This document shows positions 3,107 through 49,922 of a DNA stretch of 64,000 nucleotides, one piece after another. Location: the IMG/VR virus record IMGVR_UViG_3300027374_000001. One strand, given 5' to 3'. The DNA comes from a virus (Duplodnaviria; Caudoviricetes). Position numbers and translations under genes: made by a program. The notes below the pieces were generated by a model. It worked only from the letters and a program-made list of their open reading frames with translations, did no database searches and was not told the DNA's origin. Position 1 is the stretch's first letter. Each line of letters begins with the position of its first letter.

Positions 3107-3862
3107 ATGAACATGCTACCATCCTATTTTAAGAAAAAAGACAATTCATTAGTATATAGCGGAAACGGAGAAGTGCTATTATACATACCAGAAAAATGGT
3201 TTGATATGAGATTTGCTATTGTAAACGGTGAATATATAGATACTATGGGTATATTATTATACTCACAAATATCATCAAGCAAATCAGACCCAACAAAAAA
3301 TATTAGGCAATTAAAATTACCTACAAAGTTTACTACTAGACCTGGCAAAATAGAAAAAGTAAAGGGATTATTGCTGGAAGGCCAAGAAAAAATGGATTAT
3401 AGAATTCTTCACTATTCTGATAATAATGAAGATAAATTTATGAGTTCTTTGCTATTGGCTAAAGATATAGAAAATGTAGAAGAGTTCTATAGAATGTTTG
3501 TCAAAACTGGAAATATACCTACCTTTATACCATATAACGAAATACAAGAATATTTTTATGAATCTATGAGATTAAATGGTGGAAACTATAAAACCAATTG
3601 GCAATTATTTGGATTATTGATATCAGAATTATGTAGAGATAAAGATGATATCTCTACCCCATATTATGCATCATCCAAATTTAAAAAAGGAGATATGAAT
3701 GGATATGTTTCAATACCAATAAGAGATGTCCCTAAATACATATCCCCATTCAGTGCAATTTTAAGTGAGAATTGGAATGAAGCCATTGTAGCAGCAATAA
3801 ATATGGGGGATTCCAAAGAAGATGTTTATAATCCAATGGAAAAAATAATGATGGGCCATTAA
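3107..3862 (+). CDS. putative RNA polymerase beta' C-terminal fragment (virion RNAP subunit)
   Basis: C-terminal SPFSAILSENWNEAIVAAINMG...NPMEKIMMG resembles beta' SFISAASFQETTRVLTEAA...LKENVIVG; behind a late-type promoter. Confidence 0.55.
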   Translation: MNMLPSYFKKKDNSLVYSGNGEVLLYIPEKWFDMRFAIVNGEYIDTMGILLYSQISSSKSDPTKNIRQLKLPTKFTTRPGKIEKVKGLLLEGQEKMDYRILHYSDNNEDKFMSSLLLAKDIENVEEFYRMFVKTGNIPTFIPYNEIQEYFYESMRLNGGNYKTNWQLFGLLISELCRDKDDISTPYYASSKFKKGDMNGYVSIPIRDVPKYISPFSAILSENWNEAIVAAINMGDSKEDVYNPMEKIMMGH

Positions 3863-33312: not shown

Positions 33313-33387
33313 TAAGGAGAAAAAATAATCCGGGTGCCGGATTACCGACACCCAGAAATAATAAGGAAACCAAAAACCCGATTTCGA

Positions 33388-33462
33388 TGGGCCATATAGG
33401 ACTCGAACCTATGACCGACCGGTTATGAGCCGGTTGCTCTAACCAAGCTGAGCTAATGGCCC
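33388..33462 (-). tRNA. tRNA with CAT anticodon (Ile2-like or elongator Met)
   Basis: GGGCCATTAGCTCAG...ACCGGCTCATAACCGGT...GGTTCGAGTCC...TGGCCCA cloverleaf; CCA not encoded. Confidence 0.92.
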
Positions 33463-33464
33463 GG

Positions 33465-33833
33465 GTTAAGATCGCCAACGTATGCTAACTGCATCTGCTG
33501 TTGCCTCTCTCGGCGAGCTATATCTCAGACTCTTTTCTTTTGATTCAGTGCTGAGTCTTACACATTACCATTCAATTACCGCCACTTGCGGAGCAGGTGT
33601 TAACACTTACACTGCGATTCTCTTTCGGAGCGAGCTCTAACCCCAATCGCTACACGATTAACACTCATTACATTTTGGTATAGCACTGCTGTACTCTAAC
33701 CGCCATAGCCGCACCCTGCATTCTACGCAGATACTGCCGGCTTTTCTTAGCGGCCGTGCACCATAGGCCGGTATCGTTACTGCCCCCCAGCAATTACCGA
33801 CAACGATTCGGCAGAGATTAACCCACTCAGCCG
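33465..33833 (-). ncRNA. putative structured non-coding RNA between tRNAs
   Basis: ~370 nt, markedly GC-richer than its flanks, several nested stems, no credible ORF; strand assumed from the flanking tRNAs. Confidence 0.55.
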
Positions 33834-33835
33834 AA

Positions 33836-33907
33836 CTGGGCATATTGGATTCGAACCAACGAATTCAGGAGTCAAAGTCCCGTGCCTTACCTCTTGGCGA
33901 ATGCCCA
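33836..33907 (-). tRNA. tRNA-Gln(TTG)
   Basis: TGGGCATTCGCCAAGAGGTAAGGCACGGGACTTTGACTCC...GGTTCGAATCC...ATGCCCAG. Confidence 0.92.
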
Positions 33908-34016
33908 TTATTAGCACTATGCTTTATTTTCTATCAATTATATGTATAACTATTTTTATTTTACTACAATTATAAATAAAAGAGGGACAGCATATTTCTG
34001 TCCCTCTTCCTTTTTG

Positions 34017-34463
34017 TTAACCTTCGATTATCAGATCTTCTAATTTTCCTGCACAATTTTTATTATTAAGCATTAACCGGAATAAGAATCCTTCGCTGTC
34101 TTTGACAGGTTTGCGGTCTTCAAAATCCAAAACCGTAATATCGTTTAGCCCAAGTAAATTAATTTTCTTACATGGATTTATGCGCAGAACTCCAAAAGGT
34201 TTTCCATAAAAAGTGTCTACAACGTTAATTGTAACCGACCCAAGGATGCTAATGCTGTCTCCTTTAGCCGAAGGATTGTTTTCACTAACCCGACTGCTGA
34301 TACTATCGATTGATCTCTTTGATGCCAATGAGTAGAAAATAATATCGGTCTTTAAGCCCGTAAGGATATGCCTACATTCGAGTTTCACCTTGATCTTTCC
34401 AAAAAATCTACCTCTCTTAATGCTAAGCTTAGTTCTTGTTGTGTTATACATACCATGAATCAT
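34017..34463 (-). CDS. hypothetical protein
   Basis: 148-aa ORF with RBS, hairpin terminator at ~33981-34007. Confidence 0.6.
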   Translation of the reverse strand: MIHGMYNTTRTKLSIKRGRFFGKIKVKLECRHILTGLKTDIIFYSLASKRSIDSISSRVSENNPSAKGDSISILGSVTINVVDTFYGKPFGVLRINPCKKINLLGLNDITVLDFEDRKPVKDSEGFLFRLMLNNKNCAGKLEDLIIEG

Positions 34464-49151: not shown

Positions 49152-49922
49152 TTACAGAGTATACTGCTTATTGTCTACAACATCAGAAGCGGATGCATTA
49201 GGCGCTGCTGACCCTGCAATTGGTGACTCTGCGTCAAAGAAGTTTACATTGTTTGCATTCGGCTGTGCTGCCTGTCCTTGCGCTGCCTGGGCCTGAGCCT
49301 GCTGCGCTGGGTCCATTGTTTGACCCATATTCATGGCACCTGGCCATCCTCCATAACTAGCTGCACCGGGCTGTGTGTATCCTCCAAATCCACCGCCCAT
49401 AAGACCGGCCAATAATACTGCCGCATTTCCTCCTCCGAACTGGTTGCTATTGATAGCCGCACCATACTGTCCGAAGTGGTCATTCGCGATCTTATACATC
49501 TGCTTTGTTTTCTTAAGGAATGGTATCATCTGGAAGAATGCTTTACAAACTGCATCAGGAATGTCTCTATACATTACCTTTGTTGTCTCAAGAAGGTCGA
49601 CTACCCCATCGACAGTAGTATTGACAGCATCCTGGCTCAGATCAGCCATACGGAATGTAGCTCCGCAAATCATACAGGTATAAGACCCGTCCTGGTTCTG
49701 GCGGAGCCTATCTTCTCCACCAACCCGGTGTGTGCAGATTGCCTGCAAAGATTCTTCCCTCGAAACTGATAATGAAAATGAAGGCGCTTTCTGCGCCAAG
49801 AATTTTACATCCTCATCAGTCAAAGGGTTCGTACCTACTGGCTTCTTCATTGCGGGATTCGTGAATTGATACGCATACCCTGAGTTCGGAAAACCAGTTT
49901 GTCCAAAGAAATTGTTCATCAT
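49152..49922 (-). CDS. Zn-binding protein with Gly/Gln/Ala-rich low-complexity tail
   Basis: CTH...CMIC; C-terminal GGGFGGY...QQAQAQAAQGQAAQ; own early-type promoter (49966-49981) and terminator (~49119-49144). Confidence 0.7.
   Translation of the reverse strand: MMNNFFGQTGFPNSGYAYQFTNPAMKKPVGTNPLTDEDVKFLAQKAPSFSLSVSREESLQAICTHRVGGEDRLRQNQDGSYTCMICGATFRMADLSQDAVNTTVDGVVDLLETTKVMYRDIPDAVCKAFFQMIPFLKKTKQMYKIANDHFGQYGAAINSNQFGGGNAAVLLAGLMGGGFGGYTQPGAASYGGWPGAMNMGQTMDPAQQAQAQAAQGQAAQPNANNVNFFDAESPIAGSAAPNASASDVVDNKQYTL

Follow-up and report, generated by a model that had tools for sequence, protein, structure and literature searches.

What fills the gap between two tRNA genes of this virus: a spacer, a remnant, or a gene for an RNA in its own right? 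The preliminary description of the DNA (the window, a stretch of 64,000 nucleotides analysed as a whole) had pointed to a GC-rich, structured, non-coding region there, and had read it as a large ncRNA released by tRNA processing and possibly of a new class. The answer favoured here, with slightly better than even confidence and on the strength of the sequence, is that the region is a lineage-specific phage ncRNA gene, whose product would be matured by RNase Z and RNase P.

The locus and its phage

Using ARAGORN and Rfam, two tRNA genes were identified on the minus strand, and the candidate RNA, which fills the gap between them, has the exact bounds 33463-33835 (minus strand), a length of 373 nt. 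Ahead of it lies tRNA-Gln (anticodon UUG; 33836-33907, minus strand; 60.5 bits), followed by UU, and behind it a tRNA with anticodon CAU (33388-33462, minus strand; 70.4 bits); both lack an encoded CCA. ARAGORN calls the latter tRNA-Met, and it could alternatively be Ile2; a lysidine-modified Ile2 identity, reading AUA, would suit the 33% GC genome. With tRNAs of Enterococcus phages this tRNA shares about 90% identity.

The gene directly upstream (148 aa; 34017-34463, minus strand) ends in an intrinsic terminator at 33978-34010 (minus strand; a 13-pair stem, then a T run), which marks the boundary where a separate transcription unit starts. Between this terminator and tRNA-Gln are 70 AT-rich nucleotides, and within them, about 30 nt upstream of the tRNA, a -10-like hexamer, TATAAT (33937-33942, minus strand), can be read that is the putative promoter of the tRNA-Gln unit. 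A consensus promoter scan did not pick it up and no -35 element was recognised, nor is the motif common to other intergenic regions; the 115 nt flanking it are almost invariant across variants. On the far side, 32 nt beyond the second tRNA, the unit is closed by another intrinsic terminator (33329-33356, minus strand; a 12-pair stem, 8 of the pairs being G-C, then a T run). The order of terminator, promoter, tRNA, 373 nt, tRNA and terminator thus argues for a self-contained transcription unit. The upstream 148-aa protein could be assigned to no family from Pfam, PHROGs or the ESM Atlas, and in a set of 5.8 billion proteins just two clusters at 90% identity represent it; since its spread is as narrow as that of the RNA, the two may have been acquired together.

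Nearby genes encode split RNA polymerase beta pieces, a PhuZ-kind tubulin, a UvsX-like recombinase and gyrase A. Protein identity is about 31% to the closest phages in culture, namely AR9, PBS1 and the jumbo phages of staphylococci, and metagenomic relatives have genomes of 225-270 kb; the source genome is that of an uncultured AR9/PBS1-like jumbo phage. One 256-aa ORF at 49152-49922 of the window (minus strand) forms an island of 48% GC against the genome's 33%.

Composition and coding potential

The stretch 33463-33835 is 49.6% GC, against 33.4% for the whole window and 25-34% in six other intergenic gaps, so the GC content had rightly been described as above background. It had also been called non-coding and free of any ORF led by a ribosome-binding site, and both statements hold: no ORF within it has such a site, and the variants differ by indels of 4, 6 and 2 nt, which break frames. 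The possibility that a small protein is encoded is hardly credible. A 61-aa ORF on the RNA strand is shifted out of frame by the 4-nt insertion in the L015 lineage and is lost in L016. A 52-aa antisense ORF (33482-33640, plus strand) does stay open in all variants, but it has no ribosome-binding site, overlaps the tRNA operon and runs against every neighbouring gene, and its pN of 0.052 and pS of 0.048 give a ratio near 1; silent and replacement sites in it are equally constrained, and it is therefore not a protein that is under constraint. The 373-nt stretch is not coding.

Searches, spread and selection

At the Rfam gathering score, and at E values up to 10 on an 801-nt slice, only the two tRNAs were matched, and related loci likewise gave tRNA matches only. 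Infernal placed no Rfam family inside 33463-33835: the GOLLD and ROOL covariance models had no match there under either setting, the bacterial RNase P models none at E up to 10, and tmRNA none in Rfam or by ARAGORN -m at 80% thresholds, in agreement with the earlier remark that no tmRNA or RNase P hallmark could be recognised. With RF00005 and with ARAGORN (80% thresholds, introns allowed, the thresholds being relaxed down to the level where spurious calls begin), no tRNA cloverleaf was detected inside the stretch, only the two flanking tRNAs. A BLAST search of 50,697 phage records matched the tRNAs alone, the top record being Phass-1, whose spacer differs, and internal repeats of the candidate RNA were not above those of shuffled sequences.

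By way of neighbouring genes, with one extra contig (L041) reached by an exact-word scan of metagenome contigs, the RNA was found in 14 metagenome contigs from ENA, Logan and JGI assemblies. All belong to one species-level clade, in which it is 91-100% identical, is kept in length and sequence, and occurs in eight distinct versions; the RNA polymerase piece of the phages that bear it is at least 97% identical to that of the window. None was found elsewhere in phage records, IMG/VR, JGI metagenomes or GTDB genomes. The homologues on which the ncRNA proposal depended thus exist, though confined to a single species-level clade at identities of at least 91%. Of the suggestion of a new class, the part that stands is that no Rfam family covers the RNA; what is new amounts to an orphan sequence, for which any conserved fold would be putative. 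The family of the 373-nt sequence is new and very narrow, while its kind, a phage RNA tied to a tRNA cluster, is known. Eleven short-read contigs of this phage (L010-L013, L037, L038, L045, L046, L051, L052 and L057) begin inside tRNA(CAU), so that assemblies tend to lose the RNA.

So narrow a distribution might be expected of a small mobile or selfish insertion between the tRNAs, MITE-like or a remnant of an intron, in that one lineage has the RNA and its sisters lack it; the GC content is also foreign to the genome, and the ends of the stretch form a 7-nt inverted repeat, GGGUUAA...UUAACCC. This origin is nevertheless very improbable. There is no second copy or long antisense match within the 64-kb window and no further copy in any fetched locus; exact-word scans of viral contigs, metagenome contigs and GTDB genomes gave one match, L041, which is the same phage; no intron or ribozyme family of Rfam matches the 373 nt; and the terminal inverted repeat is broken in L015 with no compensating change.

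Between the window and the carriers of the L015/L054 lineage there are 27-28 substitutions in 371 aligned RNA positions (7.3-7.5%) and three indels, while four-fold sites in the genes on both flanks are 20-28% divergent (46/178 upstream and, in L054, 61/264 downstream; Fisher P = 1.5e-8 for the RNA against the upstream four-fold sites). The RNA has evolved about three times more slowly than the adjoining silent sites and, with flanking coding DNA at 5-14% over all sites, is as conserved as the coding DNA around it. Judged by these rates, the 373-nt RNA is under purifying selection. Within it a block of 55 nt (33521-33575, minus strand) is unchanged in every version and contains an AGACUC/GAGUCU hairpin with a 20-nt A-rich loop. 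Contig L053 (938-1475) is recombinant inside the RNA, being mostly of the L015 type and of the window type in the 3' terminal hairpin, and recent exchange, not selection, could account for some of the low divergence.

Predicted folding and covariation

The complementary segments listed in the preliminary description (gcc/ggc, agactc/gagtct, gtgttaa/ttaacac, gcgatt/aatcgc and atcgtt/aacgat) all lie where it had put them, and GAAA, GCAA and GAGA loops are present on the minus strand as it had said. Folding of the minus-strand RNA gives a minimum free energy no better than that of shuffled sequences (z -0.9; plus strand, z -2.0). The G-U pairs and the U-G to C-G changes among variants are compatible with the minus strand only.

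Four helices recur in all the predictions and accommodate each change seen among the variants. The 5' hairpin (33807-33835, minus strand; helix 5), directly after tRNA-Gln, pairs UUCGGC with GCCGAA and GAG with CUC; among its 9 pairs there is 1 one-sided change and none is broken. The second hairpin (33762-33805, minus strand; helices 6 and 7) is capped by a run-of-G loop, and in the L015 lineage shows U-G to C-G and A-U to G-U changes. The A-rich-loop hairpin, at 33527-33558 (minus strand), lies inside the invariant block. The 3' terminal hairpin (33468-33520, minus strand; helix 19), with 10-11 pairs, ends 5 nt before tRNA(CAU); its changes are G-C to G-U, G-U to G-C and C.U to C-G, together with a U.U to C-G replacement in L015/L054 that took two changes.

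Between the outer elements a central multi-helix region is predicted (33553-33760, minus strand), in which three GUUA-containing segments pair alternatively; the gtgttaa/ttaacac pairing has two competitors, a local hairpin and a pairing with a third partner. The 4-, 6- and 2-nt indels all fall within this region, as does one G-C to A-U double change (A9 columns 284/329). With such competing pairings the modelled fold of the central 200 nt is uncertain. Among the other segments first listed, the atcgtt/aacgat helix is disfavoured by the variant L015, which has AU changed to GG on its 5' strand; a competing helix, GUCGGUA/UACCGGC, has two pair-keeping changes.

When the fold is computed from the window's sequence singly, the substitutions seen in the other versions disrupt pairs at the rate expected of random placement. 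In the RNAalifold consensus, which was built from the same rows used to score it, 99% of cells pair and most variable pairs changed one-sidedly. Since homologues are found only within one clade, at identities of at least 91%, the alignment for covariation is shallow, and for the RNA alone (8 distinct rows, one double change) the covariation signal was matched by 121 of 500 shuffles. A nine-row alignment that included the tRNAs as a control made two double changes in tRNA-Gln stand out, the compensatory changes among variants lying in its acceptor and T stems. In that alignment the RNA has about 30 variable predicted pairs: in 22 a one-sided change preserves pairing, in one the G-C to A-U double change does, and one goes from U.U to a new C-G pair. 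RNAalifold mis-folds the flanking tRNAs when they are included, so its global fold is not trusted. A more stable fold results from the L015 substitutions where they stand than from random placements of them (P about 0.04), and the fold of the L015 3' domain has a z of -4.2. On these models, a structure for the 373-nt RNA is plausible.

The same site in sister and distant lineages

Beyond the species-level clade, the gap between tRNA-Gln and tRNA(CAU) holds other sequence. In L036 (RNA polymerase piece 83% identical) this is another sequence, at least 212 nt long and 52% GC, which has a perfect 57-nt tandem repeat where the contig ends; in L002 (75%) it is a 161-nt spacer (3222-3382), 51% GC, with a z of -2.56; in L005 (69%), 112 nt at 18% GC with a terminator-like hairpin; in L020 and L025 (about 54%), 106 nt at 37% GC; and in L027 and L029 (about 45%) a tRNA-Tyr occupies the Gln-Met gap. 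Three close lineages are thus each about 50% GC at this site, in genomes of about 32% GC. The L036 repeat, at 1-112 upstream of tRNA(CAU), has 2.0 copies and is cut off by the end of the contig; assembly probably fails at this repeat, and the array may be longer than the 2.0 copies seen. For L002 (3222-3382) a 5' hairpin and a closed multi-branch domain are predicted.

Smith-Waterman comparison of the window RNA with the L002, L036, L020 and Phass-1 spacers gave z values below 1.4 throughout, against dinucleotide shuffles, and a covariance model of the RNA's 3' domain (R1) matched nothing in L036 or L002, in 20 further loci or in five complete relatives. Resemblances between L036 and the window noted by eye (an A-rich-loop hairpin, an AGCU..CGCCGA stem and "GUGUA plus hairpin" modules) are unsupported at those scores. 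From the unrelated spacers it follows that the Gln-CAU site turns over fast.

Long inter-tRNA spacers are common in this phage family. Phass-1 (L001:3700-8144; OQ749652) has eight tRNAs with spacers of 207-280 nt, most with ATAT before the next tRNA; its Gln-Met spacer contains a T-arm-like GGTTCAAATCC, then an acceptor-like strand and CCA, which the tRNA finders do not call. In the relative G004 (L060:260-1722) a Leu-Asn-Asn-Asp-Pro tRNA cluster has spacers of 413, 85, 348 and 225 nt with no Rfam match.

A site so variable between lineages, and one that in the more distant L027 and L029 holds a further tRNA, might contain nothing more than decayed tRNA genes or recombination debris between conserved tRNAs, GC-rich from its origin. 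The octamer GGUUAGAG (RNA strand), part of the D-loop of tRNA(CAU), does occur twice in the RNA (33635-33642 and 33694-33701). This is a decidedly unlikely account, for debris is expected to drift at the silent rate, about threefold faster than the RNA does, and would not be maintained in length and sequence through 14 contigs; nor does the stretch yield a tRNA-like fold or an intron-bearing tRNA with ARAGORN at 80% thresholds, or an Rfam tRNA match.

More weight, though still well short of an even chance, is given to a cis-acting spacer, which would matter for the precursor only, through the independent folding of the tRNAs, the order or rate of processing, or the RNase sites, and would be degraded after cleavage. 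Hairpins stand immediately 3' of tRNA-Gln in every relative examined, the best-supported helix of the window RNA is the one abutting tRNA(CAU), and relatives manage with unrelated spacers of 106-161 nt. Against this, the constraint extends across 373 nt and includes the 55-nt invariant block, distant from both tRNAs, which exceeds what a spacer needs, and the relatives with spacers of 18-37% GC indicate that GC-rich sequence is not required for the tRNAs.

Proposed maturation and role

In Gram-positive bacteria, RNase Z cuts CCA-less tRNA precursors after the discriminator, and RNase P takes off 5' leaders. For the ncRNA gene favoured here, a single precursor would run from its own promoter through a leader, tRNA-Gln, the 373-nt RNA and tRNA(CAU) to the terminator, and the host's tRNA-maturation enzymes would release the RNA from it. 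RNase Z, cutting after the CCA-less tRNA-Gln, would create the 5' end (UUCGGC...), and RNase P, cutting at the 5' end of tRNA(CAU), the 3' end (...UUAACCC). Because both tRNAs lack CCA and abut the RNA, these two cuts would free exactly 373 nt. The hairpins at both termini could then shield the product from exonucleases, and a stable, trans-acting RNA may result. The invariant block with its 20-nt A-rich loop, as the most constrained part, would be the likeliest working surface.

The original idea of an ncRNA released by tRNA processing keeps its footing in the non-coding sequence, the self-contained tRNA operon, the CCA-less tRNAs and the constraint; its weak side is that homologues occur in one clade only. 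Evidence against an RNA gene is the folding energy (z -0.9), the pairs that substitutions break in the fold of the window, the shuffles that equal the covariation of the consensus fold, the recombination seen in L053, and the narrowness of the clade, whose sisters are without the RNA.

One speculation is that unrelated GC-rich RNAs at the same site in sisters point to a role with fast turnover, such as binding a host factor. Carried further, the Gln-Met operon would be a cassette site in which closely related lineages each place their own GC-rich structured RNA (of 373 nt in the window, of 161 nt in L002, and of at least 212 nt, with its 57-nt tandem repeats, in L036), released by host enzymes and serving to decoy or inhibit a defence factor of the host that binds RNA, with turnover driven by an arms race; in this full form the proposal is unlikely. 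Phage tRNA clusters are usually viewed only as a supply of tRNAs for codon usage or anti-defence. Were the ncRNA gene reading true, tRNA operons would also deliver other RNAs, host RNase P and RNase Z serving as a free maturation system; the narrow spread and the uncultured host limit immediate use of the 373-nt RNA.

Comparison with known systems

The degenerate tRNA genes of phage clusters resemble the candidate in position between tRNAs, in tRNA-like GC content and in the D-loop-like octamer; they differ in that the 373-nt RNA has no detectable cloverleaf and evolves under constraint. Type III antitoxin RNAs (ToxI-like) and phage pseudo-antitoxins are short structured RNAs of phages or hosts that counter a defence protein; the antitoxin RNAs consist of tandem direct repeats beside the gene of a toxin endoribonuclease. 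The perfect 57-nt tandem repeat of the sister L036 at the same site recalls them, whereas the window RNA is without a tandem repeat and no ToxN-like gene was recognised adjacent to it; the proteins encoded next to it fall in no Pfam or PHROG family, and no internal repeat of the RNA is significant.

In phage T4, RNAC and RNAD, of roughly 120-140 nt, are located in the tRNA gene cluster and matured together with the tRNAs. Similarly, the 373-nt candidate is encoded within a phage tRNA transcription unit; the T4 RNAs are much shorter and belong to another host and another phage family. RNAC and RNAD ("species 1 and 2") are produced as stable RNAs whose function is unknown (PMC9697503). GOLLD and ROOL are large structured RNAs that often occur near tRNAs and in phages or prophages, are perhaps co-transcribed with the tRNAs, and also have an unknown biochemical function (PMC5737381). 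The candidate adjoins tRNAs too, two of them, in a jumbo phage. ROOL averages 581 nt and GOLLD is longer, and both span several phyla with strong covariation, unlike the window RNA, which is shorter, belongs to one phage clade and has no match to an Rfam model at E up to 10. If the ncRNA gene reading is true, the 373-nt RNA would be one more case to set beside the unsolved stable RNAs of phages, T4 RNAC and RNAD, GOLLD and ROOL.
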